Positions 4,637-44,618 of a stretch of DNA of 44,618 nt are shown here, piece by piece; the stretch's first letter is position 1; every line of letters begins with the position of its first letter. Under the pieces are notes generated by a model, which was not told where the DNA came from, did no database searches, and saw only the letters and a list, made by a program, of their open reading frames with translations. Source of the DNA: Nemertoderma westbladi (taxonomy: Eukaryota > Animalia > Xenacoelomorpha); NCBI GenBank assembly GCA_032718475.1, contig JAUCBJ010006425.1, forward strand, positions 1 to 44,618. The letters run 5' to 3'. Both the position numbers and the translations under genes were made by a program.

Positions 4637-5653
4637 ATGTCTCGAATTCGATGCAATAATCGTCGACTACTAGAAGCAGGGCAAACCGCGGAGGAAAAGA
4701 GAACTGAAATCCTGAAAAGATATTACATAGGTCAGGAACTGGAAAGACTTTCCGAAGACCTGGAAAGTTCATCATTTTGGGTTGTTTCCGCCGAGATGGT
4801 GTTAGAGGCCAACCTCTTAGAATTATCACTAGGAAAACGAATTTTAACTAAAAATTGTAAAAAGATAGAAAGTAGGCCTACAGACACTTATAATTCGCTG
4901 TCATATGTGCCATTTCGCACAATGTTTAGATTTGACAAAAAGGAGGACGAAAGAAGGAGGACAGAAGACAGAAGTGCGACGCCGACGAATTGGGCAATTG
5001 TTCACTGGTTATGTAAAGTATTTGGAAGTTACCCCCTCGAGGTGTATAGAACGAATCGATGCGATCGCGCATACCTTGAATTAGAAGGGATGAAATATCT
5101 TCAACCAGGCCTTGGTGGTGGACTTGTAATCTATCAGGAGTTTAAGAAAGAGAAACAAATTTATTTCATACACGCCGCTGATAAAGATGATGTTGACATT
5201 CTGTTCAACTTCTTTGAGAAATACAACACAAGTACCAAGAAATCATATCAGTTGGTTAAGGAAGGACTCATATACCTGTACAAAAAGGAAAAGATGAAAC
5301 CGTTTTGGGGCGAAATGATCTACAATCTGAAGAACCGAATGGAGTTGAGATTGACCCCAAGCATAGAGAAGCCTGAAATTCGAGTACAATTTGTAAAGGT
5401 ATACGACCTAGAAACGTTTGTAGCAGCACCTCTTACACGAGAGGAAGATACCCTTAATGGTTGTTTGATGATAACATCTGGGATTAGGTTGAGAAATTCG
5501 GGTCAGAGTCGAATTCAAGGTATGTACAATCTCTTAGGCTGGAAGAGCAAGCAGGTCATCAAGGATATCTGGTTTGAAAGTGTAGCAGAAAGGGATGAAT
5601 GGCTGGAAGTTATTTTGGACTATAGTGTTGATTCCATTACTATCAGTGAATGA
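4637..5653 (+). CDS. Intronless 338 aa hypothetical protein with a C-terminal PH-like domain (possibly tandem PH)
   Basis: 1 kb open frame in AT-rich DNA. VKEGLIYLYKKEKMKPFW resembles PH beta1-2 and IWFESVAERDEWLEVIL resembles PH beta7 plus the helix with its conserved Trp. IYFIHAADKDDVDILFNFF may end a degenerate first PH domain. Confidence 0.65.
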   Translation: MSRIRCNNRRLLEAGQTAEEKRTEILKRYYIGQELERLSEDLESSSFWVVSAEMVLEANLLELSLGKRILTKNCKKIESRPTDTYNSLSYVPFRTMFRFDKKEDERRRTEDRSATPTNWAIVHWLCKVFGSYPLEVYRTNRCDRAYLELEGMKYLQPGLGGGLVIYQEFKKEKQIYFIHAADKDDVDILFNFFEKYNTSTKKSYQLVKEGLIYLYKKEKMKPFWGEMIYNLKNRMELRLTPSIEKPEIRVQFVKVYDLETFVAAPLTREEDTLNGCLMITSGIRLRNSGQSRIQGMYNLLGWKSKQVIKDIWFESVAERDEWLEVILDYSVDSITISE

Positions 5654-6465: not shown

Positions 6466-7720
6466 TAGTTTTTTATAAAATGCTAACAATGCGAAAGTTA
6501 GGAGGACCATGTAAATAAAGTTAATTACGGTCAGTGGTTTTCATAAAGGACTAAATGTTAGGATTATAGTTATATGTTCTTCCCAATGAGGTCGCTATAG
6601 GAAACATAGAATCTGTGCATTTTTTCTCATAAGTTGCGATTTGGCGAAAGTGGGATCATACCCTTTTGACCTCAAAAATATATAAATTTGACATTGAGGA
6701 TTCATTTTCTGAGTGGTGTTAGCACTATTTTGGTGTTATCACTTTGTATAGAAACTTCTCACTTAAAGTTAGCGTGCTAGGTAATTCGTAAACACACACA
6801 CCCCCACCTATACGGGTTAACTATGGATTCTGTGGACAAGCTCACAACCAAGGGATCTGTGGACGTACTTATTTATTAAATATCTAGAGAACTATCCAAT
6901 GAAAATCCTTCAAATTTTCAAATTAGCTTCCTAATAAGTAATGGGAAATGTTTGCTTTTCAAAATTTAAAATTTTTCCAATATTTCAAAAATCATTTTTT
7001 TACATTCACTGTGCGGACATTGCTTTTGGTGACGTCATAATTATGTGTGTTGTGCCTGAGTGTGTTCAGTGATGTCCACAAACCCCAACTGGGGTCAAGA
7101 CACATACGAAAATTAATGTCCACATTCCACAACTAGTGTAACACATACAGTATATGGGAAAGGAAACTGAAATGCTTTGTTTTTATGCAACTTCATGGAT
7201 ATGATTCTAGTAATTGGACTACTTGGTCGGGTCAGTCCATAGAGATAATGTTCTTTTATTGTTTTTATACACTCGTGAATAATTATTGTAAAAGTTAATA
7301 TTTTCCTATTAGTTACCTAAGGACTACTTGTGGTACAAGTTTCCTTAGTTTACTCAGTTACTATAACAATGGGTTTTCACTTAGTCGATAGCGATAGCGC
7401 TGAACAATCCCGCCTGTAAAGCAATGCATACAAGTTAGCATGTAGCAATTTGTTTTGAAAATACTTGCAGTCTCAAGAAATATACCGTAATACTGCCATC
7501 ACTGCTAAAAATATTATTTTTTTCTGCGGGAAGACTAATTAATTTTAGGTTGTATATAAATACAAATAGAGTGGCGCACAACAATTAATGATATAGCTCT
7601 TATCATTCAATTATATTAATTATGAATTTTATGCTTTAAAATTATTTGGACCCTTCTACAGTACGTATTGTAAGAGCAATAGACGCTAAGAATATGTCTT
7701 ATATAATAAATTAACGAGAA

Positions 7721-8280
7721 CACACCGTTCCAAATACTGTCCCTTGCGCACATCTGGGGACATTAGTTTTTGTATTGTTTTTTCTGCAGGCCATACGGTA
7801 TGTAGTTGCAATGGACATTAAGAAATGTTTTTATATATTGACGAAAACACACCGTTCTAAATACTGTCCCTTGCGCACATCTGGGGACATTAGTTTTTGT
7901 ATTGTTTTTTCTGCAGGCCATACGGTATGTAGTTGCAATGGACATTAAGAAATGTTTTTATATATTGACGAAATCACACCGTTCTAAATACTGTCCATTG
8001 CGCACATCTGGGGACATTAGTTTTTGTATTGTTTTTTCTGCAGGCCATACGGTATGTAGTTGCAATGGACATTAAGACATTTTTTTATATATTGACGAAA
8101 ACACACCGTTCTAAATACTGTCCCTTGCGCACATCTGGGGACATTAGTTTTTTTAGTGCTTGGAGTATTATAATAGGCCCTACGTATAGTTGCAATGAAT
8201 GTTAAGAATATTTAATATATTTAGCAAAAACATACCATTGAAAATACTGTCCTTTACGCACATCTGGGGACATTGGTTTT
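7721..8280 (+). repeat. 127 bp tandem repeat (~4.5 copies), left arm of the foldback
   Basis: CACACCGTTC(C/T)AAATACTGTCCCTTGCGCACATCTGGGGACATTAG... starts at 7721, 7848, 7975, 8102 and (diverged) 8231. Confidence 0.9.
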
Positions 8281-8600
8281 TCTATAGGTGAGATAGGCTC
8301 TACGTGAACCATGTCCTGGAATATAGTGTCGTCATACAGGCACCTGACCCCCCCCCCCCAGGGTTTTTTCTAAATTCTGTATGTTAGGGAAATTTCTAAA
8401 TGAAAATAGCGATTTATAAATTTTTATACTTGTTTAGAAATTGGTCACATAGAGACTAACCAATTCGCGCGGGAAGGTTTTAAACTTTACATGCATTTAA
8501 CTCAGAATATTATTTCTCATTTTTTCCTTCACTCAAAACCTATCTACACCGTCATTTTTTAATGAATTCGTTTGAAATTTTCAGTGAATAATCAACTAAG

Positions 8601-9025: not shown

Positions 9026-9540
9026 CATTCATTGCAACTATACGTAGGGCCTATTATAATACTCCCAGCACTACAAAAACTAATGTCCCCAGATGTGCGC
9101 AAGGGACAGTATTTAGAATGGTGTGATTTCGTCAATATATAAAAACATTTCTTAATGTCCATTGCAACTACATACCGTATGGCCTGCAGAAAAAATAATA
9201 CAAAAACTAATGTCCCCAGATGTGCGCAAGGGACAGTATTTAGAATGGTGTGATTTCGTCAATATATAAAAACATTTCTTAATGTCCATTGCAACTACAT
9301 ACCGTATGGTCTGCAGAAAAACAATACAAAAACTAATGTCCCCAGATGTGCGCAAGGGACAGTATTTGGAACGGTGTGTTCTCGTTAATTTATTAATATT
9401 ATTATATATTCTTAACGTCCATTGCAACTACCTACATAAGTAGAACGTCGGGCATAATATAATACTCTCAGCACTAAAAAACTAATGTCCCCGGATGTGC
9501 GCAAGGGACAGTACACTATTTAAAATGGGTGTGTTTTCGT
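9026..9540 (-). repeat. 127 bp tandem repeat (~4 copies), inverted right arm of the foldback
   Basis: CTAATGTCCCCAGATGTGCGCAAGGGACAGTATTT is repeated and is the reverse complement of the 7721-8280 unit. Confidence 0.9.
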
Positions 9541-13347: not shown

Positions 13348-13882
13348 GTTGTTGTTGGTTTTTTAAATAGTATATTTATTCATTTATTACAAGATTTGCT
13401 TTGTTATATCGAGAATGACAAAATGAATGGGATAATCTTTTAGGCACGTTAAGACAAGGAATGCCTGTTCACCACCATGGGTGATCTTCCACAGTAAACC
13501 CTTCCACTCTGTTTCCTAAAGGAATGCCTATTCACCACCATGGGTGATCTTCCACAGTAAAACCTTCCACTCTGTTTCCTAAAGGAATGCCTGTTCACCA
13601 CCATTGGTTATCTTCAACAGTAAACCCTTCCACTCTGTTTCCTAAAGGAATGCCGGTCCACCACCATAAGGTGATCTTCCACAGTAAACCCGTCCACACT
13701 GTTTTCTAAATGAATTCCTGTTCACCACCATGGGTGATCTTCCACAGTAAATCTTTAGTAAACATCAGTAAACAATTAAAGAACTGCACCCAAACAGTGA
13801 GGCAGCACTGCCCCATCCAGGGATCGAACCAGGGCCTCCTGATTGGAAGGTCAGGAATGTCACCACTAGACCAAGCTACTGC
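13348..13882 (-). mobile_element. tRNA-Gly(TCC)-derived SINE with an internal 63 bp minisatellite and a short (CAA)n tail
   Basis: Minus-strand head (13882-13809) has A-box TGGTCTAGTGG, arm CCTGA-CCTTCCAA-TCAGG and B-box GGTTCGATCC; the acceptor stem does not pair. The 63 bp unit starts at 13458, 13521, 13584, 13647 and about 13710. GTTGTTGTTG lies at about 13348. Confidence 0.75.
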
Positions 13883-14644
13883 ATCGTCTAGTGAGTGAGA
13901 ATTACAAAATGTAGACTTAGTTATACCCGAAACAATAATACAGCTTTAATTTTGCTTGTTTATTTTACATCTAAAACATTGTACTCTCTATAAAAAAAGT
14001 CTAACTAGATGTTTTCAAAATTTTAACAATCATTACCCCACCATATTGGGACACTTTCAGAATTTCGGGAGTGGGGGGTGCCACCTAGCCCCCCACCCCT
14101 CCCCTCTCCCGGAAACGTACCTCTCTTTATGGGAGCGGGTATTTAACAAACAGTCAATGAACTAAATCGAATAGTAGAATATCACTAATCATTTTAAATA
14201 TTCCGCTTTATTTATATGTAAGTTTGAGCACCGGAGCTCTTGTGTAGTGGGAATTGTGCACTGTTGCACAACCCCCCCCCCCCCCCCCCCCCAAAAAAAA
14301 ATACGAGTCTTTTAGAGGTCGCACACACACACATAGACAGCGGCTGATGTATTTGAGCACCGGAGCTCTTTAGAGGTCGCACACATACATAGGCAGCGGC
14401 TGAAGTATTTGAGCACCGGTGCTCAACTTAAGGCATCCGCATTAAGTGCTAACCACGCCATATTAGCTCCACACTACAGTGTTGCATAGGTCATGTTCAC
14501 CGGTGCACAATCCGCTGCTAACGTGTTAAAAACGAAAAAGGCGAATACGTTTAAATGTTGAAACTCTTGTAAATACAAAACACAAACGAGCACCAATCAT
14601 TAAAATATCAGCAACAAACACCTAAAAGCCCACCTAATTAATAC

Positions 14645-15810
14645 CTATTTAATCTGAGTTACAACCCCCGCGGCTATAGTTGACCCTCCATAACGCAGCA
14701 TAAACCTCCCAAGGTCCTTATTGTCGCTGTACAGTTCCACGCATATCGGTTTGTTTACTGTAATCTGAACCAACGCGTTACACGACTTCCCCAAACACTT
14801 CGGGCGTTTCTTCACCACCTCACCCGAACTGCGACTCAACAAACTGATGAGTTTACTGATAACGGCGGGTTCAATGACGTTCTGGTGATGGAACACCACG
14901 GGGAACCCGGGGGTGATGGGAACGGTGATAGGGAACACAAGCAACCTAGCTATGAACCGCGCTGTGCAGGGCACCAAAGAGGCGCCTCTGCGGCACACGA
15001 CGCTCCCGACCCCCACCTTATTGGGATCGACGCCGAGGAGCGTGAGGTCTGCCTGATCCCCGGCCTCCGCAGCGGGTTTGGCCACGCCGTAGACCGCGAT
15101 CTGTTTCACGGTGCCGGACTCCGCGGCCGGCAGCACCACCAGTCGGTCCCCGACATCCACGCGTCCCGAGGAGAGTTTCCCGGCTACCGAGATCCCGGAA
15201 CCGAGTCCTTTATAGACGTCGGACACGCCGAAACGCAACGGGCCGTCCACGGGCCGGGGTGGCAGCGAGAACGCGTTAATGGCGCCGAGTAAGGAAGGCC
15301 CGTGAGGGTACCAACTGGTCAACGCCGGCTCCTCCGCAGGGCGAGTCAGATTAATCCCGTTCAAACCGCTACACGGTAAGTACTTAACGTCCGACTCTTT
15401 AAACCCCGCCTGTTTGAGGAATTGTCCCAGTTTACCGACTATACTAGTAAACCGGGATTCCTGCCAACCAACTAAGTCGAGTTTATTAACAGCGACTACC
15501 AACTGAGTGACCCCGAGAGAGCGGACTAACAACGCGTGTTCGCGCGTCTGTCCCCCGGATTCGAACCCCGCTTCGAACCCTCCCGTTGACGCGTCCACCA
15601 CCAGCACTGCCACATCTGCAGCAGAAGCTCCGCTTATCATGTTGGGTATAAAGTCTTTATGTCCCGGGGCGTCTAACAGGTTTATTATGTATTTGTCCGT
15701 CTCGAACTGCGATGTCGCGATGTCCATGGTGATCCCACGAGTTCTCTCCTCGCCAGTCTCGTCCAGCACCCACGCGAATGCGAAGGAAGATTTACCCAAC
15801 TTACGAGATT
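14645..15810 (-). CDS. HBS1L: HBS1-like translational GTPase, coding exon 2 (switch I through domains II/III and stop)
   Basis: Acceptor TTTGTTTCTCGCAG|AATCT gives ESRKLGKSSFAFAWVLDETGEERTRGITMD, followed by LDAPGHKDF (G3), NKLD (G4), CSGL (G5) and GRFMLRYGGSTIAAGVV. Phase 1 matches the exon-1 donor. Confidence 0.95.
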
Positions 15811-18800
15811 CTGCGAGAAACAAATTACAATTATGTACATTTTCACTATACAGTGTAAATATTATTCAAATAATTCAATGCAACTTCAATTTAATAATTT
15901 TTACCGTCATTTTAGCTGGTCGGTACAATATGATGTGTATCGCCAATGTGAAGAATACTAGGTTTTAATTTTTCTGTCGAATTTTAATTGGAATTTTATA
16001 TGAAGAGTCGGTATTTTTTAAATTTTTTTATTATTATAAAGGGTGCTTTATAGCGCTGATTTCTCCATTGTAACCTGTACAGTACAGATGCGAATTGGTT
16101 TATTGCTTTGGTTAGATTCAGCCCTTCTGAAACCTGGGTATTTTAAAAAATTGCATTCTTCAAATTGGGGTAAACTACAAAGCGAAATATAACAGCAGGT
16201 AGTGTGGTAAACTTCACATGGGCCATCTGCATTAAAACTTTAATATAACTCATAGTTATAAGTAAGTACTTTCATATCCTTTAAATATGGGCTGGGCACC
16301 CTTGTTCCTTTCTCGTACTTATGCATTGTCTTCATATTAACGCATCCCAGCTGGTACAACACGTGACCCATTAACCGAACACACCACCTACCTGTCTCGT
16401 ACTTATGCATTGTCTTCTTATGAACGCATCCCAGCTGGTACAACACGTGACCCATTAACCGAACACACCACCTACCTGTCTCGTACTTATGCATTGTCTT
16501 CTTATGAACGCATCCCAGCTGGTACAACACGTGACCCATTAACCGAACACACCACCTACCTGTCTCGTACTTATGCATTGTCTTCTTATGAACGCATCCC
16601 AGCTGGTACAACACGTGACGCATTAACTGAACACACCACCTACCTGTCTCGTACTTATGCATTGTCTTCATATTAACGCATCCCAGCTGGTACAACACGT
16701 GACGCATTAACTGAACACACCACCTACCTGTCTCGTACTTATGCATTGTCTTCTTATGAACGCATCCCAGCTGGTACAACACGTGACCCATTAACCGAAC
16801 ACACCACCTACCTGTCTCGTACTTATGCATTGTCTTCATATTAACGCATCCCAGCTGGTACAACACGTGACGCATTAACTGAACACACCACCTACCTGTC
16901 TCGTACTTATGCATTGTCTTCTTATTAACGCATCCCAGCTGGTACAGCACCTGACCCATTAACCGAACACACCACCTACCTGTCTCGTACTTATGCATTG
17001 TCTTCTTATGAACGCATCCCAGCTGGTACAACACGTGACCCATTAACCGAACACACCACCTACCTGTCTCGTACTTATGCATTGTCTTCTTATGAACGCA
17101 TCCCAGCTGGTACAACACGTGACCCATTAACCGAACACACCACCTACCTGTCTCGTACTTATTTATTGTCTTCTTATTAACGCATCCCAGCTGGTACAAC
17201 ACGTGACCCATTAACCGAACACACCACCTACCTGTCTCGTACTTATGCATTGTCTTCTTATGAACGCATCCCAGCTGGTACAACACGTGACCCATTAACC
17301 GAACACACCACCTACCTGTCTCGTACTTATGCATTGTCTTCTTATTAACGCATCCCAGCTGGTACAACACGTGACGCATTAACTGAACACACCACCTACC
17401 TGTCTCGTACTTATGCATTGTCTTCATATTAACGCATCCCAGCTGGTACAACACGTGACGCATTAACTGAACACACCACCTACCTGTCTCGTACTTATGC
17501 ATTGTCTTCATATTAACGCATCCCAGCTGGTACAACACGTGACCCATTAACCGAACACACCACCTACCTGTCTCGTACTTATGCATTGTCTTCTTATTAA
17601 CGCATCCCAGCTGGTACAACACGTGACCCATTAACCGAACACACCACCTACCTGTCTCGTACTTAATTATTGTCTTCATATTAACGCATCCCAGCTGGTA
17701 CAACACGTGACCCATTAACCGAACACACCACCTACCTGTCTCGTACTTATTTATTGTCTTCTTATTAACGCATCCCAGCTGGTACAACACGTGACCCATT
17801 AACCGAACACACCACCTACCTGTCTCGTACTTATGCATTGTCTTCTTATTAACGCATCCCAGCTGGTACAACACGTGACCCATTAACCGAACACACCACC
17901 TACCTGTCTCGTACTTATGCATTGTCTTCATATTAACGCATCCCAGCTGGTACAACACGTGACCCATTAACCGAACACACCACCTACCTGTCTCGTACTT
18001 ATTTATTGTCTTCTTATTAACGCATCCCAGCTGGTACAACACGTGACCCATTAACCGAACACACCACCTACCTGTCTCGTACTTATGCATTGTCTTCTTA
18101 TTAACGCATCCCAGCTGGTACAACACGTGACCCATTAACCGAACACACCACCTACCTGTCTCGTACTTATGCATTGTCTTCTTATTAACGCATCCCAGCT
18201 GGTACAACACGTGACCCATTAACCGAACACACCACCTACCTGTCTCGTACTTAATTATTGTCTTCATATTAACGCATCCCAGCTGGTACAACACGTGACC
18301 CATTAACCGAACACACCACCTACCTGTCTCGTACTTATTTATTGTCTTCTTATTAACGCATCCCAGCTGGTACAACACGTGACCCATTAACCGAACACAC
18401 CACCTACCTGTCTCGTACTTATGCATTGTCTTCTTATTAACGCATCCCAGCTGGTACAACACGTGACGCATTAACCGAACACACCACCTACCTGTCTCGT
18501 ACTTATGCATTGTCTTCATATTAACGCATCCCAGCTGGTACAACACGTGACCCATTAACCAAACACACCACCTACCTGTCTCGTACTTATGCATTGTCTT
18601 CTTATTAACGCATCCCAGCTGGTACAACACGTGACCCATTAACCGAACACACCACCTACCTGTCTCGTACTTATGCATTGTCTTCATATTAACGCATCCC
18701 AGCTGGTACAACACGTGACCCATTAACCGAACACACCACCTACCTGTCTCGTACTTATTTATTGTCTTCTTATTAACGCATCCCAGCTGGTACAACACGT

Positions 18801-21800
18801 GACCCATTAACCGAACACACCACCTACCTGTCTCGTACTTATGCATTGTCTTCTTATTAACGCATCCCAGCTGGTACAACACGTGACCCATTAACCGAAC
18901 ACACCACCTACCTGTCTCGTACTTATGCATTGTCTTCTTATTAACGCATCCCAGCTGGTACAACACGTGACCCATTAACCGAACACACCACCTACCTGTC
19001 TCGTACTTATTTATTGTCTTCTTATTAACGCATCCCAGCTGGTACAACACGTGACCCATTAACCGAACACACCACCTACCTGTCTCGTACTTATGCATTG
19101 TCTTCTTATTAACGCATCCCAGCTGGTACAACACGTGACCCATTAACCGAACACACCACCTACCTGTCTCGTACTTATGCATTGTCTTCTTATTAACGCA
19201 TCCCAGCTGGTACAACACGTGACCCATTAACCGAACACACCACCTACCTGTCTCGTACTTATTTATTGTCTTCTTATTAACGCATCCCAGCTGGTACAAC
19301 ACGTGACCCATTAACCGAACACACCACCTACCTGTCTCGTACTTATGCATTGTCTTCTTATTAACGCATCCCAGCTGGTACAACACGTGACGCATTAACC
19401 GAACACACCACCTACCTGTCTCGTACTTATGCATTGTCTTCATATTAACGCATCCCAGCTGGTACAACACGTGACCCATTAACCAAACACACCACCTACC
19501 TGTCTCGTACTTATGCATTGTCTTCTTATTAACGCATCCCAGCTGGTACAACACGTGACCCATTAACCGAACACACCACCTACCTGTCTCGTACTTATGC
19601 ATTGTCTTCATATTAACGCATCCCAGCTGGTACAACACGTGACCCATTAACCGAACACACCACCTACCTGTCTCGTACTTATTCATTGTCTTCTTATTAA
19701 CGCATCCCAGCTGGTACAACACGTGACCCATTAACCGAACACACCACCTACCTGTCTCGTACTTATGCATTGTCTTCTTATTAACGCATCCCAGCTGGTA
19801 CAACACGTGACCCATTAACCGAACACACCACCTACCTGTCTCGTACTTATGCATTGTCTTCTTATTAACGCATCCCAGCTGGTACAACACGTGACCCATT
19901 AACCGAACACACCACCTACCTGTCTCGTACTTATTTATTGTCTTCTTATTAACGCATCCCAGCTGGTACAACACGTGACCCATTAACCGAACACACCACC
20001 TACCTGTCTCGTACTTATGCATTGTCTTCTTATTAACGCATCCCAGCTGGTACAACACGTGACCCATTAACCGAACACACCACCTACCTGTCTCGTACTT
20101 ATGCATTGTCTTCTTATTAACGCATCCCAGCTGGTACAACACGTGACCCATTAACCGAACACACCACCTACCTGTCTCGTACTTATTTATTGTCTTCTTA
20201 TTAACGCATCCCAGCTGGTACAACACGTGACGCATTAACCGAACACACCACCTACCTGTCTCGTACTTATGCATTGTCTTCATATTAACGCATCCCAGCT
20301 GGTACAACACGTGACCCATTAACCGAACACACCACCTACCTGTCTCGTACTTATGCATTGTCTTCTTATTAACGCATCCCAGCTGGTACAGCACCTGACC
20401 CATTAACCGAACACACCACCTACCTGTCTCGTACTTATTTATTGTCTTCTTATTAACGCATCCCAGCTGGTACAACACGTGACCCATTAACCGAACACAC
20501 CACCTACCTGTCTCGTACTTATTTATTGTCTTCTTATTAACGCATCCCAGCTGGTACAACACGTGACCCATTAACCGAACACACCACCTACCTGTCTCGT
20601 ACTTATTTATTGTCTTCTTATTAACGCATCCCAGCTGGTACAACACGTGACCCATTAACCGAACACACCACCTACCTGTCTCGTACTTATGCATTGTCTT
20701 CATATTAACGCATCCCAGCTGGTACAACACGTGACCCATTAACCGAACACACCACCTACCTGTCTCGTACTTATTTATTGTCTTCATATTAACGCATCCC
20801 AGCTGGTACAGCACCTGACCCATTAACCGAACACACCACCTACCTGTCTCGTACTTATGCATTGTCTTCTTATTAACGCATCCCAGCTGGTACAACACGT
20901 GACCCATTAACCGAACACACCACCTACCTGTCTCGTACTTATGCATTGTCTTCTTATTAACGCATCCCAGCTGGTACAACACGTGACCCATTAACTGAAC
21001 ACACCACCTACCTGTCTCGTACTTATGCATTGTCTTCTTATTAACGCATCCCAGCTGGTACAACACGTGACCCATTAACCGAACACACCACCTACCTGTC
21101 TCGTACTTATGCATTGTCTTCTTATTAACGCATCCCAGCTGGCACAGCACGTGACCCATTAACCGAACACACCACCTACCTGTCTCGTACTAATGCATTG
21201 TCTTCTTATTAACGCATCCCAGCTGGTACAACACGTGACCCATTAACCGAACACACCACCTACCTGTCTCGTACTTATGCATTGTCTTCTTATTAACGCA
21301 TCCCAGCTGGTACAACACGTGACCCATTAACCGAACACACCACCTACCTGTCTCGTACTTATGCATTGTCTTCTTATTAACGCATCCCAGCTGGCACAGC
21401 ACGTGACCCATTAACCGAACGCACCACCTACCTGTCTCGTACTAATGCATTGTCTTCTTATTAACGCATCCCAGCTGGTACAACACGTGACCCATTAACC
21501 GAACACACCACCTACCTGTCTCGTACTAATGCATTGTCTTCTTATTAACGCATCCCAGCTGGTACAACACGTGACCCATTAACCGAACACACCACCTACC
21601 TGTCTCGTACTTATGCATTGTCTTCTTATTAACGCATCCCAGCTGGCACAGCACGTGACCCATTAACCGAACACACCACCTACCTGTCTCGTACTAATGC
21701 ATTGTCTTCTTATTAACGCATCCCAGCTGGTACAACACGTGACCCATTAACCGAACACACCACCTACCTGTCTCGTACTTATGCATTGTCTTCTTATTAA

Positions 21801-23363
21801 CGCATCCCAGCTGGTACAACACGTGACCCATTAACCGAACACACCACCTACCTGTCTCGTACTAATGCATTGTCTTCTTATTAACGCATCCCAGCTGGTA
21901 CAACACGTGACCCATTAACCGAACACACCACCTACCTGTCTCGTACTTATGCATTGTCTTCTTATTAACGCATCCCAGCTGGTACAACACGTGACCCATT
22001 AACCGAACACACCACCTACCTGTCTCGTACTTATGCATTGTCTTCTTATTAACGCATCCCAGCTGGTACAACACGTGACCCATTAACCGAACACACCACC
22101 TACCTGTCTCGTACTTATGCATTGTCTTCTTATTAACGCATCCCAGCTGGTACAACACGTGACCCATTAACCGAACACACCACCTACCTGTCTCGTACTT
22201 ATGCATTGTCTTCTTATTAACGCATCCCAGCTGGTACAACACGTGACCCATTAACCGAACACACCACCTACCTGTCTCGTACTTATGCATTGTCTTCTTA
22301 TTAACGCATCCCAGCTGGTACAACACGTGACCCATTAACCTAACACACCACCTACCCGTCTCGTACTTATGCATTGTCTTCTTATTAACGCATCCCAGCT
22401 GGTACAACACGTGACCCATTAACCGAACACACCACCTACCTGTCTCGTACTTATTTATTGTCTTCTTATTAACGCATCCCAGCTGGTACAACACGTGACG
22501 CATTAACCGAACACACCACCTACCTGTCTCGTACTTATTTATTGTCTTCATATTAACGCATCCCAGCTGGTACAACACGTGACCCATTAACCGAACACAC
22601 CACCTACCTGTCTCGTACTTATTTATTGTCTTCATATTAACGCATCCCAGCTGGTACAACACGTGACCCATTAACCGAACACACCACCTACCTGTCTCGT
22701 ACTTATGCATTGTCTTCTTATTAACGCATCCCAGCTGGTACAACACGTGACCCATTAACCGAACACACCACCTACCTGTCTCGTACTTATTTATTGTCTT
22801 CTTATTAACGCATCCCAGCTGGTACAACACGTGACGCATTAACCGAACACACCACCTACCTGTCTCGTACTTATTTATTGTCTTCATATTAACGCATCCC
22901 AGCTGGTACAACACGTGACCCATTAACCGAACACACCACCTACCTGTCTCGTACTTATTTATTGTCTTCATATTAACGCATCCCAGCTGGTACAACACGT
23001 GACCCATTAACCGAACACACCACCTACCTGTCTCGTACTTATGCATTGTCTTCTTATTAACGCATCCCAGCTGGTACAACACGTGACCCATTAACCGAAC
23101 ACACCACCTACCTGTCTCGTACTTATTTATTGTCTTCTTATTAACGCATCCCAGCTGGTACAACACGTGACCCATTAACCGAACACACCACCTACCTGTC
23201 TCGTACTTATGCATTGTCTTCTTATTAACGCATCCCAGCTGGTACAACACGTGACCCATTAACCGAACACACCACCTACCTGTCTCGTACTTATTTATTG
23301 TCTTCTTATTAACGCATCCCAGCTGGTACAACACGTGACCCATTAACCGAACACACCACCTAC
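15811..23363 (-). other. HBS1L phase-1 intron (7553 nt if donor 1 is used), over 90% tandem array
   Basis: GTAGGT at 23363 ... CAG at 15811. Joining gives KYET-E-SRKLGK, collinear with the HBS1L family (human KYEQESKKAGK). Predicted product is 710 aa. Confidence 0.85.
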
Positions 23364-23430
23364 CTGTCTCGTACTTATTTATTGTCTTCTTATTAACGCA
23401 TCCCAGCTGGTACAGCACGTGACCCATTAA
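16311..23430 (-). repeat. 84 bp tandem array (~84.8 copies) of the HBS1L exon-1 end plus 5' splice site
   Basis: Unit = 67 nt exon ([23 protein letters not shown]) + 17 nt GTAGGTGGTGTGTTCGG. First donor 23363, last donor 16391; the difference is 6972 = 83 x 84, so there are no net indels. Confidence 0.97.
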
Positions 23431-24330
23431 CGTGCTCTTCCCGGCGTCCACGTGACCGATCACAACAAGGTTTAGCAACCCCTTCCCGCCCCGAGGCTCC
23501 CGCGGTTTCGGATTCGCCGGCGGGGCATCTCTAGTAACTAGTTTCGGTTTGACCACGGTATCCGGGGCCCCGGAACATTTCAGTTGACTCTCCGGAAGTT
23601 TCGGACCTTCCGAGTCGATTTTAATCGCGGCGACAGAAGCGGTTATACCGCCGTTTATATGTGGTTTTGCGTCGTGGTGTTCGGGCAGATTCCCATTGGA
23701 TGCCACGGGATCCGGCAATAGTCCGTCTTCTTCCATGGGCACAGGACCTAGTACACGCCCCTCAACGCTCAGACCGCGCCCTACTATGCCCACGCCGCGC
23801 CCTACTTCGCCAATCTTTCGCCCTCGACCTACGGAGTCTCTGGCTGACGGACCTAGCGGGTCGTTTGGAAACACGCGGCCAGTGGGACTCGGATTATGTA
23901 GCGAGTCGATCGCTCGCTCCGTGTTGTAGTTACATTCGAGTAGAGTTCTAACCAACACGCTCTCCGGGATGGTGTCGCCGACGATGGAACCGAGTTCATC
24001 CAAGCCTTCCATAAGGCGAGCGAACTCCGCGTCGTTGAGTCCAAGACTGCGGAGGTCCAGGGATTCAGCGAGCGGGTCGGAGAGATCGTCATCTAACGAG
24101 TTCCGCGGGGATTCGATGCGTGACGGTTGGATCCCTCGGGAGTCAACGCCGTCGATAAAGTTTGATAAATTCGGTCGTTTGTCGACGCTGCGAGACAGGA
24201 GGAACTGTTGCGCCGTTAGCGGAGAAATTGCGTAGTCGCAATCGGGAACGGACAAACCGTACTCGTCATCGTAGCTAACAGCGTATTCCTCGCTGTGCGC
24301 TGCGTTACGGATATCTCTGTGACGCGACAT
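23364..24330 (-). CDS. HBS1L: HBS1-like translational GTPase, coding exon 1 (HBS1 N-terminal domain to P-loop)
   Basis: [25 protein letters not shown] matches the HBS1L N-terminus (MARHRNVR..YGQSV..YCISPSTAAQF). [19 protein letters not shown] is G1. The exon ends ACAG|GTAGGT. Confidence 0.95.
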
Positions 24331-25079
24331 TGTTAGTCAGTTAGTCGTAAATCCTGAAATCTGTAAATCTTGAAAATAATTCTGTAGGGCCTAGTTCAGT
24401 AGTTTGATTAGCCTACTGACAGACTTGACTGACTGAGATTGGGATCAAATCCTGAAATCTTTAATAAGGTATCGGTAATACAGTGATAGGCCTACGTCAG
24501 TACTGCAGATCGTCTGTACGTGCGTGATACTGTGATAGGCCTACTACTGTACTAGGCCTACGGTAACTGTGGAACTGTGATATCGGTAGGGGTAGTCCGG
24601 CTGTCCGGTTACAGGGTTAGCCAGTTAGCGTAGCGGCGGTAGGCCTTTTTTGTCATGCTTCACTTTGCTGCTTTGACGTTCTGTCTGTATGTATGACAGC
24701 AGATGGCTCAACAAAAATTATACAACATATAATTCATTTTGGCCCGTTTGCTGGAAGATTTTGCCGGAAGACGGTTAGGCAATCATAGGCGAGTATTCGG
24801 TTCCGACAGAGTCGCTTGTCTATTAAAAGGCTGTTCACCAGGAATATCATGAACTGCTTGAAGGAACAGTAGATAATGACATGGAGATACGCGAGATACT
24901 GTAATTATTTTAGGTGATCTCTTTACGTATATTACTTTACGTAATATTTATGCCTAGGGTAAGCGGATTGTGAGCTTCAATGCGTGGTCAGTTATAGGTA
25001 CTGTAGACCCTTTCTGCCTTTGACCTTAAGTAGTAGTAATAAGTATTAGTACTAATAAGTAGCAGAGTAGTAGTAGTAA

Positions 25080-26189: not shown

Positions 26190-26219
26190 AAGTACTGTAG
26201 TAGTAGTAGTAATTATTTA

Positions 26220-26672
26220 GAGCATCAGTAGTTCCAGTACTCCTCTATGGGAGTCCATGCTGGGCTCTAACTGCTGAGGACACCAAATCTCTGGATGGCA
26301 CATTCACAAGAATGCTACGCCGGGTTCATTGTGTCAAGTACAATGCACACATCTCCAACCAGACACTATATAACATTGGAGGTGTCTCATTGGTTCCCCC
26401 AAGCTTGACACTAGAACAAAATCGCCTACGCTTTGCAGGACATTGCTTTCGCCGTGAGGACCAGCCAGTGCATAATCTTGTACTTTGGCAGCCTCATGGA
26501 GTGAATAAGCATGGTGGACAGCCCATTACTTTCTTGAGACGCATCCTAAAGGAAACTGGCCTTGAAGATGCGGATGATCTAGCAAATGTCATGGGTGATG
26601 GAGTTGTGGCGGCGCAATTTTGTCGACAAGCCGGCACTGCATTCTTAAAAATGCCGATCCTAGTAGTAGTAG
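26220..26672 (+). mobile_element. 5'-truncated RTE/RTEX-type LINE 3' end with (TAG)n tail
   Basis: ASVVPVLLYGSPCWALT..LDGTFTRMLRRV..HISNQTLY..RLRFAGHCFRREDQPVHNLVLWQP is a typical RTE-clade C-terminus. TAGTAGTAGTAG lies at about 26660. Confidence 0.85.
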
Positions 26673-32746: not shown

Positions 32747-35193
32747 GGGTCCTACTAATTACCCCAACCTACCCCAACCTACCACAAACTACCACAATCT
32801 AATTAATTACATCTAATTACCACAATATTATTTTACAATGGCATCTAATTACCACAATATACAGAATGCAAGAGTGTCTAATTACCACAAGGCTATACTG
32901 CGTCTAATTACCACAACACTATACTGCGTCTAATTACCACAACACAACACTGCGTCTAATTACCACAATCTATTTACCACAAGACTACACTGCATCTAAT
33001 TACCACAATATTATTTTACAATGGCATCTAATTACCACAATATACAGAATGCAAGAGTGTCTAATTACCACAAGACTATACTGCGTCTAATTACCACAAT
33101 CTATTTACGAACAAGACTACACTGCACACTGCATCTAATTACCACAATATTATTTTACAATGGCATCTAATTACCACAATATACAGAACGCAAGTGTCAG
33201 AGTGTCTAATTACCACAAGACTATACTGCGTCTAATTACCACAACACTATACTGTGTCTAATTACCACAACACAACACTGCGTCTAATTACCACAATCTA
33301 TTTACCACAAGACTACACTGCATCTAATTACCACAATATTATTTTACAATGGCATCTAATTACCACAATATACAGAACGCAAGTGTCTAATTACCACAAG
33401 ACTATACTGCGTCTAATTACCACAACACTATACTGTGTCTAATTACCACAACACAACACTGCGTCTAATTACCACAATCTATTTACCACAAGACTACACT
33501 GCATCTAATTACCACAATATTATTTTACAATGGCATCTAATTACCACAATATACAGAACGCAAGTGTCTAATTACCACAAGACTATACTGCGTCTAATTA
33601 CCACAACACTATACTGCGTCTAATTACCACAACACAACACTGCGTCTAATTACCACAATCGATTTACCACAAGACTACACTGCATCTAATTACCACAATA
33701 TTATTTTACAATGGCATCTAATTACCACAATATACAGAACGCAAGTGTCAGAGTGTCTAATTACCACAAGACTATACTGCGTCTAATTACCACAACACTA
33801 TACTGTGTCTAATTACCACAACACAACACTGCGTCTAATTACCACAATCTATTTACCACAAGACTACATACACTGCATCTAATTACCACAATATTATTTT
33901 ACAATGGCATCTAATTACCACAATATACAGAACGCAAGTGTCTAATTACCACAAGACTATACTGCGTCTAATTACCACAACACTATACTGTGTCTAATTA
34001 CCACAACACAACACTGCGTCTAATTACCACAATCTATTTACCACAAGACTACACTGCATCTAATTACCACAATATTATTTTACAATGGCATCTAATTACC
34101 ACAATATACAGAACGCAAGTGTCTAATTACCACAAGACTATACTGCGTCTAATTACCACAACACTATACTGCGTCTAATTACCACAACACAACACTGCGT
34201 CTAATTACCACAATCGATTTACCACAAGACTACACTGCATCTAATTACCACAATATTATTTTACAATGACACAAAAAGCTGCATTACTGTAATTATTTTT
34301 CGTATAATCGTATAATTGTTTCCCCGTTGTGGCAACTATAACATCTGTTGATATAACTCCGTATTCCACCGTTTGGGTTCGTTTGGGTACCGTTTGGGTT
34401 TTTAGTCCTACCCGTGATTAGACACTTGAGTTCTGTATATTGTGGTAATTAGACGTTAGTGAAGTCTTGCGGTAATTAGACACTGAATATTAATAACTAC
34501 CGTACTGTATATTGTGGTAATTAGACACTCTTGCATTCTGTATATTGTGGTAATTAGATGCCATTGTAAAATAATATTGTGGTAATTAGATGCAGTGTAG
34601 TCTTGTGGTAAATAGACACTTGAGTTCTGTATATTGTGGTAATTAGATGCCATTGTAAAATAATATTGTGGTAATTAGATGCAGTGTAGTCTTGTGGTAA
34701 ATAGATTGTGGTAATTAAACGCAGTGTTGTGTTGTGGTAATTAGACGCAGTATATTGTTGTGGTAATTAGACGCAGTATAGTCTTGTGGTAATTAGACAC
34801 TCTTGCATTCTGTATATTGTGGTAATTAGATGCCATTGTAAAATAATATTGTGGTAATTAGATGCAGTGTAGTCTTGTGGTAAATAGATTGTGGTAATTA
34901 GACGCAGTGTTGTGTTGTGGTAATTCGACGCAGTATAGTGTTGTGGTAATTAGACACTTGCGTTCTGTATATTGTGGTAATTAGATGCCATTGTAAAATA
35001 ATATTGTGGTAATTAGATGCAGTGTAGTCTTGTGGTAAATAGACACTTGAGTTCTGTATATTGTGGTAATTAGATGCCATTGTAAAATAATATTGTGGTA
35101 ATTAGATGCCTGTATCGAATTGTTGGGGTAGATTGTGGTAGATTGTGGTAGTTTGTGGTAGGTTGGGGTAGGTTGGGGTAATTAGTAGGACCG
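32747..35193. mobile_element. Nested ~2.45 kb foldback element built from CTAATTACCACAA satellite arrays
   Basis: TIR GGTCCTACTAATTACCCCAACCTACCCCAACCTACCACAAACTACCACAATCTA at both ends. Left arm (to about 34268) has ~181 bp higher-order units; right arm (from about 34415) is inverted. Flanked by the direct repeat GGTTACCATTTTGACATTT(GG). Confidence 0.9.
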
Positions 35194-35790: not shown

Positions 35791-36607
35791 ATTGCTAATT
35801 TGCTAATACTAATTTAATAATCGAAGTAATTAATTTTAATTGATTTATTGTGCTCAATTTAATTTTAATTGATTTTTTGTGCTGTACATCAATTTAGTTA
35901 GTTTAATAGTTATTTCAGAGTTTTTAGTTTTTTTAATAGATATTTTTTACATAAATGGGATGTAGGCCTATCTGTAAATTTAATGTTTTAGAAATAGTAA
36001 AATTCAAAAGATATTCATAATTACAAATGTAGTTAAATAGGTAAATATTTTAGTTTTTTTAATAGATATTTTTTACATAAATGGGATGTATCTGTAAATT
36101 TAATGTTTTAGAAATAGTAAAATTCAAAAGATATTCATAATTACAAATGTAGTTAAATAGGTAAATATTTTACAAAAACTTTAATAAAATATCTTGAAGT
36201 GCAGTAACTCGAAAAATATCCAATCTTTTTAGAAATAGGTATCACTTCTAGATTCGTCACAAAATTTAAGTTCGAAAACAGTTGTTAAAAAGGATTTTCC
36301 GTGCAATAATCCATGTAGAATGTAGAAACTACAATGGCCTTAAATTTTAAGGCTTCTCAAGGTGGCCTGTTAGGCCGTATATATAGTAGGCCATGGGAGT
36401 AGTGATCAGGCAGTCTGGCTGTCTGGTAATAGCAGAATAGTAAGTCTAATCTAATCGAGTCAGAACATCCTGCAGTAGACAGGTAGATGGTGGTATACAG
36501 AGAGGCTGAGGGGACCGGTACCAATAGCTGAATAGGCCTATTTGGTTTGTTTAAAATACTGAAATAGGATGATAGGCCTACCTGAAAGCTGAAGCCTGTG
36601 ATCAGTT

Positions 36608-38755
36608 ATGGAAGTTATTGAGGTTGAGGAGAAACCTGCGACTGCGACGGAAGTTGCTGACAATAATGACGCGGGAGTCTCAGAAATTGCCTCAGGAGTT
36701 ACTGAAACATTTACCGACGTTTCTCCTGGAATTTCTACGCTTTGTGATTCGTTGTTCGATAAACCAGAATACAAATATTTGGACGGGTGTGGATTTACCT
36801 CCGAGGTGTTTAAGCTCAATGTCCACAACATCCACAGACTCGTGGGGTTCAACCAGTTCCGTAAAATCGTAATAAAACTCGGCTTGAAGCCTCACAAAGT
36901 CATCATATTGGAGGATAAGAAGGCTAGGTGTAGCTATGGTTACCTCACGTTTAAATCGGAAACGGATCGCGACAACGCATTGAAGAAACTCGACGGTTTC
37001 GAGTTGCGCGGCCGGGTGCTATCGGTGGGTTTGGCGAAGCCGTCAGCCGACCCGCTAGTCGTCCGGAAGCGACGTGGTTCAGATACCGGTAGCCAACCTA
37101 CCGGAAGTAAAAGTCTGAAACTCGATACTCAGGAGGAGATCGAACGAGCTCTGTTGCAGACTGTGACTCCGTTAACGGATCTAACATACCAGGAACAACT
37201 GGAAGAGAAACAATCGTTAGTCGAGGAGTTCCATCTGAAGTTGATCAAGTTAATTAGAAAGTCGCACGGTAAAGGGTCGAATACTTCCTATAGTCACCCA
37301 GACTGCTCTATCGGATTCATTAAATCTTCTCCGGTTTACCGCGAATACCGGAACAAATGCGAGTTCGGAATCGGAACGAGTCCAGCTGGAGATCAGAAAA
37401 CAGTCGGATTCCGAGTCGGCAGCTTCCGAGAGGGTTTTATGAACGTTATCCAACCCGATTGCTGCCACAACGTGCCCGAGTCGATGAAACGCATTGCGAA
37501 CCGGTTCCAGACGTTCATCCGGGGTTCGCCGCTGGAGGCGTACGACACGAGACTGCACGGCCATTGGTCGGAGTTGCACGTCCGTACGACCCGTAGTCGC
37601 GATACGATGGTCATCGTTCGGTTCAATAAAGGGCCGCTATCGGATACAGAGTTGGGCGAGGTCCAGTCCAAGGTTGTGGGGTTATTCGTGGAAGGAGATG
37701 CTAAGGGTTGCGGGGTCACCTCCGTCTATTGGCTCCCCGTTCCCGGCAAGGGTGTGGAACACACCGCGGATTACCAGTTCCTCCACGGGGAACGGAATAT
37801 ACAGGAGACCGTTGGCGGTCTCAACTTCCTTATCGGTCCGGGGGCCTTCTTCCAGCCTAACACATCGGGGTGCGAGGTTCTGTATGGGGTGGTGGGAGAG
37901 ATGTGTGCTAAGGATTGTTTTACTGTTGGGGGTGCTAATAAGGGTGTTGCAACTATTGGTGGTGGTAATAAGGGTATTGCAACTGTTGGGGGTGCTAATG
38001 AGGGTGTTACAACTGTTGGGGGTGCTAATGAAGGTGTTACAACTGTTGGGGGTGCTAATGAAGGTGTTACAACTGTTGGGGGTGCTAATGAGGGTGTTAC
38101 AACTGTTGGGGGTGCTAATGAAGGCGTTACAACTGTTGGGGGTGCTAATGAGGGTGTTACAACTGTTGGGGGTGCTAATGAGTCTGTTACAACTGTTGGG
38201 GGTGCTAATATGAGTGTTAGAGAAGGAAGTGCTCCTAGTGTAGGTGTCAGTGTGGACGGGAGTGTCGAGGCTGTTAACACCACTAGAACGACGTTACTGG
38301 ATATTTGTAGCGGCACCGGTACTATAGGAATATCTCTCGCCTCCAAGTTTAGCCGGGTAATCGGGATTGAACTGATCCAGGAAGCGGTCACTAACGCAAC
38401 GTCCAACGTTAGGTTGAACGGGATCCCCAACGCTGCGTTCCATTGCGGCCGAGCGGAGGCCATTCTACCGTCGCTCACTCGCCTACTAACGGCAGACCGG
38501 GTTATCGCAGTGCTGGACCCCCCGCGGTGTGGGGTGCACCCTAAGGTAATCAGGGCAGTCAGGGAGTCCTCCGCTATTTCTCGAATCATCTATCTGGCTT
38601 GTAATCCGAACGCCGCTATTAGTAACTTTGTGGATTTATGTAAACCCTCTTCTGGCACAATTAGGGGAATTCCGTTTACTTTATCTCAACTACAACCAGT
38701 CGATATGTTTCCATTTACTAGGCAGTATGAATTAGTCTTATTGTTTGAGAGATAG
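36608..38755 (+). CDS. TRMT2A: tRNA (uracil-5-)-methyltransferase TRM2 homolog A, intronless, 715 aa
   Basis: N-terminal RRM-like region (YGYLTFKSE), VTPL..LTYQEQLEEK, YRNKCEF, FFQPN, LLDICSGTGTIG (SAM motif I), LDPPRCG, YLACN (catalytic Cys) and VDMFPFTRQYE. Confidence 0.95.
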   Translation: MEVIEVEEKPATATEVADNNDAGVSEIASGVTETFTDVSPGISTLCDSLFDKPEYKYLDGCGFTSEVFKLNVHNIHRLVGFNQFRKIVIKLGLKPHKVIILEDKKARCSYGYLTFKSETDRDNALKKLDGFELRGRVLSVGLAKPSADPLVVRKRRGSDTGSQPTGSKSLKLDTQEEIERALLQTVTPLTDLTYQEQLEEKQSLVEEFHLKLIKLIRKSHGKGSNTSYSHPDCSIGFIKSSPVYREYRNKCEFGIGTSPAGDQKTVGFRVGSFREGFMNVIQPDCCHNVPESMKRIANRFQTFIRGSPLEAYDTRLHGHWSELHVRTTRSRDTMVIVRFNKGPLSDTELGEVQSKVVGLFVEGDAKGCGVTSVYWLPVPGKGVEHTADYQFLHGERNIQETVGGLNFLIGPGAFFQPNTSGCEVLYGVVGEMCAKDCFTVGGANKGVATIGGGNKGIATVGGANEGVTTVGGANEGVTTVGGANEGVTTVGGANEGVTTVGGANEGVTTVGGANEGVTTVGGANESVTTVGGANMSVREGSAPSVGVSVDGSVEAVNTTRTTLLDICSGTGTIGISLASKFSRVIGIELIQEAVTNATSNVRLNGIPNAAFHCGRAEAILPSLTRLLTADRVIAVLDPPRCGVHPKVIRAVRESSAISRIIYLACNPNAAISNFVDLCKPSSGTIRGIPFTLSQLQPVDMFPFTRQYELVLLFER
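37922..38218 (+). repeat. In-frame 30 bp coding minisatellite, 10 copies (TVGGANEGVT)
   Basis: ACTGTTGGGGGTGCTAATGAGGGTGTTACA x10 inside TRMT2A. Confidence 0.95.
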
Positions 38756-40317: not shown

Positions 40318-42114
40318 TTAAAATTTATTGAACGCGGGTAGGAATGGTATAAATGTAGCCCATTTACCCCTTAAATATTTACCCACTAAGGGTAAATCGT
40401 AAGTCGTATCAGAAGTGTTGTCTAATCCACGTTGCGTCATCGTATCACCGGCCCTCCACGATATTATACCGCGTTCCTCTAAGGTTCCTGGCACCGTGTT
40501 ATCTAGGACGAAGCCCAGAACGCCCCCAACAAGGACGGATGTAGACAACAACACAGTAAGAACCTGATCGAAACCTGGAGATCCGCTGTTTATGGCTTCA
40601 GGGTGGGATTTCAGATAGTTGGGAATCACTAAACCCATAAACAGGGAAAATCCCGTGATGAAAACGTTTCGAGACGAGTTCATATCAGCGAACTGTAGAT
40701 TGGATAAACCCACCGCCGTAATCATAGCGAAAGTAACGCAAAATATACCACCGATGATTGGGTCTGGGATGGTCGTGAATACGGCCCCGAATTTACCCAC
40801 CACCCCGAAACAAATCATTAGTACAGCCCCGTACTGTATGACGCGTCTAGACCCCACCTTGGTTATTCCGATGACACCAATATTCTCGCTGTACGATGTG
40901 GTTCCGTTACCGGTACCGAATGCCCCCGCTAGCAGACAGCCCACTCCCTCCGTCAGTATGCCCCGGTTGATTGCGTGTGGGGGTGGGGGCGCCGCCCCGG
41001 ACAGTCTAGCCGCGGCGTAATAATCCCCCACGGATTCCAGCATAGACGCCACAACGCCCCCGGCCATTCCCGCAATGCTAGCCACAGAAACTGTCGGGGT
41101 TCCCCACTGTCCGGGATAGATAAACCGGAACCACGACGTCTTCCACAGAACGTCGGAACGCGCGTCAGTTCGCGCGAAGTAATCTGGGGCCTTGGGATCC
41201 TCCGAAAAAACACCAGCAGCCGTCAAAATTGCGGACAAAGCCCATGCTATAATTATCGCTAAAATAACAGGAAAGATTTTAAATATAGGTGGCCATGACC
41301 ACTTAAACTGAAACTTTTTTTGGGCGTTTCGTTTAAATGCCAGGGATGGTAGAGGTACACGCCATTCCGCTATGTACAGGCTGAAAATCACGACGAGCAT
41401 TATGGTGAATATAGCGATGCCCCATTGTTTGGAAGCAAAATTCGCGGCTGGTTCGAACAGACTGAGTCCAACCAGAGCTATACTCGGCGTGATACTCAAA
41501 GGGCCGATGAAACGCAATAGAAACCCTATTGCTCCCGTCGCGCCAACCAAAATTTGTAGCACACTGGACACCATTATTGCGCCTTGAATTTCGTTCATAC
41601 GTGAATGCCAAAGCGCGTCGCTGGCTGACTGGGTAAGATTGGAGAGAACCTCAGGTTTGGGACATTGCCACTGTGCGGTCGAGAGAATAGCGAATGTGGG
41701 AACTATGAACGTGTAGGTACCTCCTTGTACGATAGGTAAACGAATACCTATAGTCGTTTGTAACAGAGTTACTATACCGCACACTGTGAATATGGTAGAG
41801 ATTAAATTGCTCAAGGCAACGGTATTGTTACCGATACACAGTGGGCCTGCTAGAATAAACGGAAGGGTAACCGTTGCTCCGAACATACACAAGTAATGTT
41901 GAAACCCGAGGATTAAACACATATTCCATGGTGGATTATCATCAACACTGTAAATTAATTCCGCTTTTTTCGGGGCAGTATCCACCTCATCATCGTCTTT
42001 CTTATCATCTTTTATTTCATCATTATCAACATCTTTCCTATCTTCTTTGACAACAAACATACGGCCATCGTCTATGATGCAAATATCCACTTCCTTCAAA
42101 CCGTCTACATTCAT
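40318..42114 (-). CDS. SLC23: SLC23/NAT-family nucleobase transporter, intronless, 598 aa
   Basis: LIYSVDDNPPW, GFQHYL (QH motif), LQTTIGIRLPIVQG, ESVGDYYA, NRGILTEG and the NAT signature SYSENIGVIGITKVGSRRV; multiple hydrophobic segments; CCACCATG start context. Confidence 0.95.
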   Translation of the reverse strand: MNVDGLKEVDICIIDDGRMFVVKEDRKDVDNDEIKDDKKDDDEVDTAPKKAELIYSVDDNPPWNMCLILGFQHYLCMFGATVTLPFILAGPLCIGNNTVALSNLISTIFTVCGIVTLLQTTIGIRLPIVQGGTYTFIVPTFAILSTAQWQCPKPEVLSNLTQSASDALWHSRMNEIQGAIMVSSVLQILVGATGAIGFLLRFIGPLSITPSIALVGLSLFEPAANFASKQWGIAIFTIMLVVIFSLYIAEWRVPLPSLAFKRNAQKKFQFKWSWPPIFKIFPVILAIIIAWALSAILTAAGVFSEDPKAPDYFARTDARSDVLWKTSWFRFIYPGQWGTPTVSVASIAGMAGGVVASMLESVGDYYAAARLSGAAPPPPHAINRGILTEGVGCLLAGAFGTGNGTTSYSENIGVIGITKVGSRRVIQYGAVLMICFGVVGKFGAVFTTIPDPIIGGIFCVTFAMITAVGLSNLQFADMNSSRNVFITGFSLFMGLVIPNYLKSHPEAINSGSPGFDQVLTVLLSTSVLVGGVLGFVLDNTVPGTLEERGIISWRAGDTMTQRGLDNTSDTTYDLPLVGKYLRGKWATFIPFLPAFNKF

Positions 42115-44182: not shown

Positions 44183-44618
44183 TAACCACCCTGGTCTATG
44201 TGAGTAACCTCCCTGGTCTACATGAGTAACCTCCCTGGTCTACGTGAGTAACCTACCTGGTCTACGTGAGTAACCTACCTGGTCTACGTGAGTAACCTCC
44301 CTGGTCTACGTGAGTAACCTCCCTGGTCTACGTGAGTAACTTCCCTGGTCTACGTGATTAACTTCCCTTGTCTACGTGAGTAACCTCCCTGGTCTACATG
44401 AGTAAGCTCCCTGGTCTACGTGAGTAACCGAGGTGTACATGAGTAACCTCCCTGGTCTATGTGAGTAACCTCCATGGTCCGCATGAGTAACCTCCCTGGT
44501 CTACGTGAGTAACCTCCATGGTCCGCGTGAGTAGCCTGGTCTACGTGAGTAAGCTCCCTGGTCTATGTGAGTAAGCTCCCTGGTCTACATGAGTAACCTA
44601 CCTGGTCTACATGAGTAA
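44183..44618. repeat. 22 bp tandem minisatellite (~20 copies, runs off the window end)
   Basis: GAGTAACCTCCCTGGTCTACGT unit; GAGTAAC at 44202, 44224, etc. Confidence 0.95.

Follow-up and report, generated by a model that had tools for sequence, protein, structure and literature searches.

The window analyzed here, i.e. the whole 44,618-nucleotide (nt) stretch of contig JAUCBJ010006425.1 from the Nemertoderma westbladi assembly GCA_032718475.1, carries a minus-strand gene for the ribosome-rescue factor HBS1L in which the boundary between exon 1 and the only intron forms the unit of an 84-bp minisatellite. The first of its 84 splice donors is the one joined to exon 2 in the run that holds the splice junction, and the other 83 copies are probably spliced out as part of the intron, without selection at the protein level. 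In window coordinates the array lies at 16311..23430 on the minus strand and consists of 84 full units and a 64-nt partial one (unit 85), which stops at 16311 and has no donor. Tandem Repeats Finder (TRF) delimits it as 16307-23431, with a period of 84, 84.8 copies, 97% matches and 0% indels, and the mean pairwise identity of the units is 97.3%. Each unit joins the last 67 nt of exon 1 to the first 17 nt of the intron and is thus 28 codons long. Its coding template, the exonic 67 nt of unit 1 (23364..23430), holds 22 codons located after the P-loop and before switch I. Donor 1, CAG/GTAGGT (23358..23366), starts the intron at 23363, and the 83 extra donors follow from 23279 to 16391, with all 83 spacings being exactly 84 bp. 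The donor is intact in 84 of the 84 full units and, by direct reading, matches U1 at 8 of 9 positions in every one. TRF and the donor spacing thereby bear out the initial annotation, made from the letters alone, as to the position, unit, indel-free length, repeated donors and coding context of the array. A second, weaker AG/GT, the use of which would shift the frame, occurs 4 nt downstream of the main donor in each unit.

Eight sequencing runs were found in a run search, five of which (X1 to X5) hold part of the stretch, and none is recorded as RNA. X1 to X4 were compared with exon 1 plus one unit, and X2 to X5 with exon 2 plus one unit; all run data are assembler contigs, which drop weak branches. 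X1 and X2 derive from one sample (S1), X3 from a second (S2) and X4 from a third (S3). S1 may be the source of the assembly, in which case S3 is the sole clearly independent DNA sample. X1, X2 and X4 behave as DNA. Judging from its spliced junction and exon-limited depth, X3 is probably an RNA run, while X5, with its non-templated poly(T) end and matching profile, is probably a poly(A)-primed RNA or cDNA run.

The evidence for the use of donor 1 comes from X3, in which one unbroken contig of 1,911 nt (837.4x) runs from 24390 to 23364, contains a single unit and continues directly at the start of exon 2. The depth of X3 is 837 on the exons and near zero over most of the intron. The two unit bins (703.1 and 572.2) are accounted for by the donor-1 contig alone (703.10 and 572.22), hence no loop contig is present, and the residual unit depth is zero. 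By comparison, about 41.5 extra units per transcript would be expected if all 84 donors were used uniformly and about 8.5 if the first 18 were, while a leak of 20% per donor is calculated to give about 0.25. A leak would be hidden by the assembler if it stayed under about a quarter of the depth on the exons. We also considered a ladder collapsed into the X3 contig, with the 5' half from unit 1 and the 3' half from a later unit, and rejected it, as this needs a loop of at least 837x where the residual depth is zero. A major ladder is thus ruled out by the X3 data.

Joined to the acceptor, the AG of which ends at 15811 as annotated initially, donor 1 yields an HBS1L of 710 amino acids (aa). Exon 1 (23364..24390, minus strand) begins translation at an ATG at 24330 and encodes HBS1_N, the P-loop and the start of the G domain; its outer limit, 24390, is the start of the X3 contig and not a mapped 5' end. 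Exon 2 (14546..15810, minus strand) supplies the rest of the G domain from switch I onward, domains II and III and the stop codon (14647-14645); its poly(A) end, which is non-templated, is placed at 14546 by X5. The Pfam domains are HBS1_N (25.3 bits, just below the cut-off of 26.4), GTP_EFTU and domains II and III, as in animal HBS1L. Closest among solved chains is mammalian (human) HBS1L, 5lzw_jj, with an E-value of 1e-15 over 41 aa. Among the matches listed, which were proteins of 212-2000 aa, the best identities are 57-63% across animals, and no close relative was found among proteins of that length, the best reaching 63%. Domains, structure and homologs thus agree on the HBS1L identity given initially. 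Pelota binding and GTPase activity are established for the HBS1L family and are predicted for this protein. The gene is expressed with an intact reading frame, as seen from the X3 contig and the poly(A) end in X5. It differs from other animal HBS1L genes in its single intron, in an Ile-Asn pair for Met-His in this haplotype, and in the SKI7-like motifs. The short HBS1/SKI7 isoform binds the exosome through RxxxFxxxL and PFDF-SPDD motifs (PMC5389692, in part). By sequence, the HBS1L locus has no such isoform motif: none of the six frames of the window contains PFDF or SPDD, and RxxxFxxxL is missing from the minus-strand frames of the gene outside the array, while F..[PA]SPDD occurs in 12 of 240 homolog entries.

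The tandem array itself is genuine and not invented by assembly. Its tandem junction appears as a go-back joint in both X2 and X4, and the depth of the unit bins lies far over that of the flanks in X1, X2 and X4; in X4 the array loop reaches 3,813x against 18-33x for the flanks. Among the contigs listed none spans the whole array, and the count of 84 is that of the assembly. Rough copy estimates from depth, calibrated on the k-mer graph of the window itself, are 35-88 units, while the direct loop depth in X4 gives an equally rough 128-237. Variant frequencies differ, with the C36-type path inferred at 28% in X4 compared to 7 of 85 units in the window. The unit-junction pattern had no match in metagenome contigs. 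An assembly artefact, affecting either the array as a whole or only the Ile-Asn of its first unit, would draw on the missing spanning contig, on a 3' edge bridged in X4 by only 23 letters on the unit side, and on the Ile-Asn of unit 1 being confirmed by no run, with all other letters of the 1,911-nt X3 contig agreeing with the window. It is opposed by the tandem junction, found along with high depth in each of two samples, by a variant in X2 that is absent from the window, by the lack of indels together with clustered variants, and by the consideration that majority-type polishing would leave the common allele in unit 1 instead of one at 28%. We regard the chance that the whole array is an artefact as negligible.

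The 3' edge of the array (16307-16311) breaks almost exactly at the place of the unit 85 donor, with the sequence after the 17 intronic bases gone, which implies a later deletion or insertion. Beyond it, the non-array 3' part of the intron (15811..16310, minus strand) holds high-copy repeat fragments and the acceptor with its tract of 65% pyrimidine.

The initial annotation had offered two alternatives for the gene: either splicing takes the donor most distant from the acceptor, which is what the X3 contig shows (unique exon 1, one unit, exon 2), or the length of the array tunes the amount of functional HBS1L. For the latter there is no ladder or rheostat signal in X3. It would require downstream donors to compete with donor 1, giving 28-aa insertions from donors 2-18 and truncated or degraded products from donors 19-84. 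The insertion of (n-1) x 28 aa by donor n, as proposed, holds by frame for donors 1-18 and fails for 66 of the 84, because an in-frame TAG occurs in five of the 84 full units (19, 21, 23, 24 and 27). The first of these is at 21862..21864 and the others start at 21696, 21528, 21444 and 21192, all on the minus strand; donors 19-84 consequently all lead to one and the same truncated product of 822 aa. Competition is favored by the 8 of 9 U1 matches shared by all 84 donors, by the use of two extra donors in the human genes CBS and 6-16 (PMC1557585, in part), by array RNA in X5, and by an X3 animal that may carry a short array or none. Speaking against it are the X3 data, with a donor-1 contig free of breaks and no unit depth left over, and X5, which has no cover on 14970-16270, a region that ladder mRNAs would have to include. 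The variant spectrum moreover looks neutral, with five stop units, and a duplication of the segment occurs in 0 of 240 homologs. Frame-keeping arises without selection, as a period divisible by three is a one-in-three event and 22 of the 28 codons were inherited stop-free. We therefore consider a rheostat very unlikely, and a regulatory isoform ladder is not supported. A modeled fold of six units of RNA predicts similar stems in each unit and does not single out donor 1.

Another route to the same mRNA is re-splicing, in which a donor and the CAG of the next unit define a GT-AG mini-intron, so that retained units could be removed again. Each unit does have an AG directly before GT (positions 67 and 71), and the junction in X3 is what the end product would show. 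However, pyrimidines make up only 30% of the 20 nt that precede the unit CAG, compared to 65% at the real acceptor, and other AGs lie just upstream of the unit CAG. Because the pyrimidine tract is missing, re-splicing at these AG/GT sites is unlikely in the extreme.

Unit variants look neutral. Among the 11 exonic ones, two are synonymous, eight missense and one nonsense, compared to 18.7% synonymous expected (p = 1.0); with this spectrum and the five stop units, the array does not resemble a coding variable-number tandem repeat kept open by purifying selection. Two missense variants change Gly and His positions that are invariant in 235 of 235 homologs (240 fetched, 235 scored, four without a match and one of different length; the set is teleost-heavy and holds 51 distinct segments). 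That the GT is untouched in the units is expected by chance (p 0.69). Local turnover of units would be expected to cluster variants, and three of the eight variants tested do cluster by span, among them the stop variant (p 0.00025) and the C36 variant (p < 5e-5), while a two-base AA variant is present in nine of the first 12 units (p 0.0004).

Several observations weigh against first-donor splicing of a neutrally evolving array. The donor-1 junction comes from one run (sample S2) at the level of contigs, and the S2 animal may lack the array or carry a short one. Both X3 and X5 carry the label 'DNA?', their RNA status being read from their profiles. Donors 2-3 may be used to a minor extent without showing in the X3 data, in the manner of CBS and 6-16. 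Five of the eight variants tested lack span clustering, and higher-order repeats are not significant, 31 of 500 shuffles having reached five units. Finally, array RNA in X5 (334x) exceeds the true 3' end (134.5x), which the use of donor 1 alone leaves unexplained.

Together, the data are best explained by an exon 1/intron minisatellite that would have arisen through tandem duplication across the donor of the only HBS1L intron, expanded by unequal exchange or slippage, and later lost its 3' edge. Donor 1 would be committed first, as in human cells, either by oriented scanning of donors, shown for F7 (PMC1557585, in part), or by U1 tethered to RNA polymerase II (PMC8316553, in part), and the remaining units would leave with the intron. 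Intron gain from a duplicated exonic AG/GT was rejected as an origin, as the 17 nt of intron in the unit do not come from the exon. Since unit 1, the coding one, belongs to the array, intronic variants could be copied into the exon by conversion or unequal crossover.

A candidate for such an exchange is found in the coding unit of this haplotype, which holds the array-type AA variant at 23379..23380 (minus strand). It changes Met-His to Ile-Asn and creates AATAAA, and is present in 24 of the 85 units, i.e. the coding unit and 23 intronic ones. Homologs have Met in 232 of 235 and His in all 235 cases, and the array consensus is also Met-His. The unit in X3 is two letters off unit 1 and two off unit 85, which differ from each other at four sites; All differences between X3 and the window thus fall within the repeat. 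With the two adjacent bases as the only fit, the X3 mRNA can be deduced to encode Met-His. In the simplest reading, the array would recently have passed the variant to the exon through conversion or unequal crossover, and exchange of this kind is the likely source of Ile-Asn in the coding unit. An error of the assembly in unit 1 is considerably less probable, albeit with a real chance of being true. A cryptic intron from unit 1 to a later unit was rejected as the source of the two letters in X3, there being no AG/GT or AG/GC between positions 16-50. In the paralogs eRF3 and eEF1A the Met-His position is occupied by Ile-Glu, so that the Ile-Asn change may be tolerated. A second exchange between exon and array is possible in X4. 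Its exon-1 contig ends exactly where unique k-mers end (23402-23415), unlike that of X2, which hints that at position 15, a synonymous site, the coding unit of X4 has the letter of its array. No precedent for conversion of a coding exon in this manner was found in a literature search covering mostly open-access papers.

Array RNA in X5 is the second lead. From its non-templated poly(T) end at 14546, X5 extends only as far as 14969, covering the last 424 nt of the mRNA at 134.5x; 14970-15810 is empty, though ladder mRNAs would cover it. In addition, it contains a circular array contig at 334x with a joint that goes back 84 nt. The depth of X5 is zero at an intron element that has 5,000-8,500 times the flank depth in DNA runs, which makes genomic carry-over unlikely. 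Two readings of this RNA may apply, namely intronic polyadenylation or internal priming on unspliced RNA. Under the former, alleles rich in AATAAA would lose transcripts to cleavage in the intron, and the dose of HBS1L would follow the composition of the array. Consistent with this, AATAAA is found in 22 of the 85 units, coding unit included, and these units also have a CA 13 nt downstream of it and a tract rich in GU; X5 is cDNA-like and still holds the array contig; no array contig is present in X3, whose unit 1 is deduced to be free of the variant; and competition between splicing and intronic polyadenylation is known (PMC13322065, in part). On the other hand, none of the three X5 loose ends listed is a poly(T) end at the array, the array path in X5 is one letter off unit 85 and hence not of the AA type, and stretches with as many as 7 A in 10 nt occur in the units, so that oligo-dT could have primed internally on unspliced RNA. 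The real poly(A) end of the gene moreover manages without an AATAAA in its 3' untranslated region, and the X5 array RNA may come from either strand. Such a poly(A) ladder is accordingly improbable. Two further features of X5 were noted: a contig of 358 nt (37.6x) joins a sequence unrelated to anything in the window to a unit (16358-16387), and 24 nt at the 5' side of the 3'-end contig, at 14969, are a loose end.

The arrangement as such is already known. Minisatellites in five human genes are described in PMC1557585 (in part), namely F7 IVS7 (37 bp x 5-9; IVS, intervening sequence), PDGF intron 4 (81 bp x 16-18), LMNB2 (100 bp x 10-15), CBS IVS13 (15-20 copies) and 6-16 intron 2 (25 pseudo-sites); three of the five use the first donor only, while CBS and 6-16 also use the next two. 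As in the HBS1L array, the junction of which is confirmed by X3, the first unit of the F7 type spans the exon-intron boundary, identical donors are repeated, and the most upstream one is used. The HBS1L array differs in having 84 donors over 7.1 kb where the human genes have at most 25 extra ones, in lying in the only intron of its gene after a first exon of 1 kb, and in being exonic for 67 of 84 nt compared to 4 of 37 in F7, which makes it a long target for conversion in coding sequence. Amphioxus 'mirage' minisatellites, found in Adh3, troponin C, the globins BflGb6 and BflGb9, and PGBD5, leave splicing undisturbed (PMC3087553 and PMC3902484, both in part). These sources, as far as they go, describe a similar invertebrate case of tandem exon-intron boundaries with intact splice signals, concerted evolution and normal splicing; the amphioxus arrays are also unstable in length. 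Compared to the 3-6 units of BflGb6, the copy number in HBS1L is far higher, and while the cluster edges in amphioxus are reported to be excluded from homogenization, the coding edge unit of HBS1L shares a locally enriched variant. The statement made at the outset that no case at this scale had been described consequently stands for the scale, the largest donor count met in these papers being 25 pseudo-sites, and falls for the kind (PMC1557585 and PMC3087553, in part). No larger donor array emerged from the same literature search, and further precedents may exist. What is new is the scale, plus the leads on exon exchange and array RNA in X5.

Elsewhere in the window, a single open frame at 36602-38752 (plus strand) matches the tRNA U5-methyltransferase family PF05958. 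Its product, which we take to be TRMT2A-like, contains an in-frame 30-bp coding repeat of 9.6 copies (37922-38209) upstream of the catalytic domain. Uninterrupted frames are also found at 40321-42111 (minus strand; xanthine/uracil permease family, PF00860) and at 4640-5650 (plus strand; 337 aa, no Pfam match). Together with the single intron of HBS1L, these frames point to an intron-poor animal genome. An element of very high copy number at 26209-26500, with a depth of more than 1 million in the DNA-like runs, overlaps a 162-aa frame that has no Pfam match and presumably is a look-alike of a retrotransposon tail. Many other minisatellites, with periods of 32, 127, 63, 26/181 and 22 bp, occupy 1-1390, 7706-8285, 9072-9435, 13456-13751, 32760-35180 and 44182-44618, suggesting that the region is generally prone to tandem amplification.

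With 84 donors compared to at most 25 extra ones (PMC1557585, in part), this is the most extreme donor array found in the literature search. It offers a natural test of first-donor commitment in which the unit variants serve as barcodes, and a clean one, because transcription passes every donor kilobases ahead of the acceptor. A further reading, in which the array acts as a mutation reservoir that rewrites the HBS1L coding exon, its composition rather than its length setting sequence and dose through conversion and intronic polyadenylation, is doubtful. If true, one variant would have replaced an invariant His and seeded 22 canonical poly(A) signals, while nonsense variants and missense variants in the P-loop helix would be waiting in the array. 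If conversion of the exon holds, arrays of this kind would be costly, as neutral intronic variants, stops included, could reach an essential coding exon.

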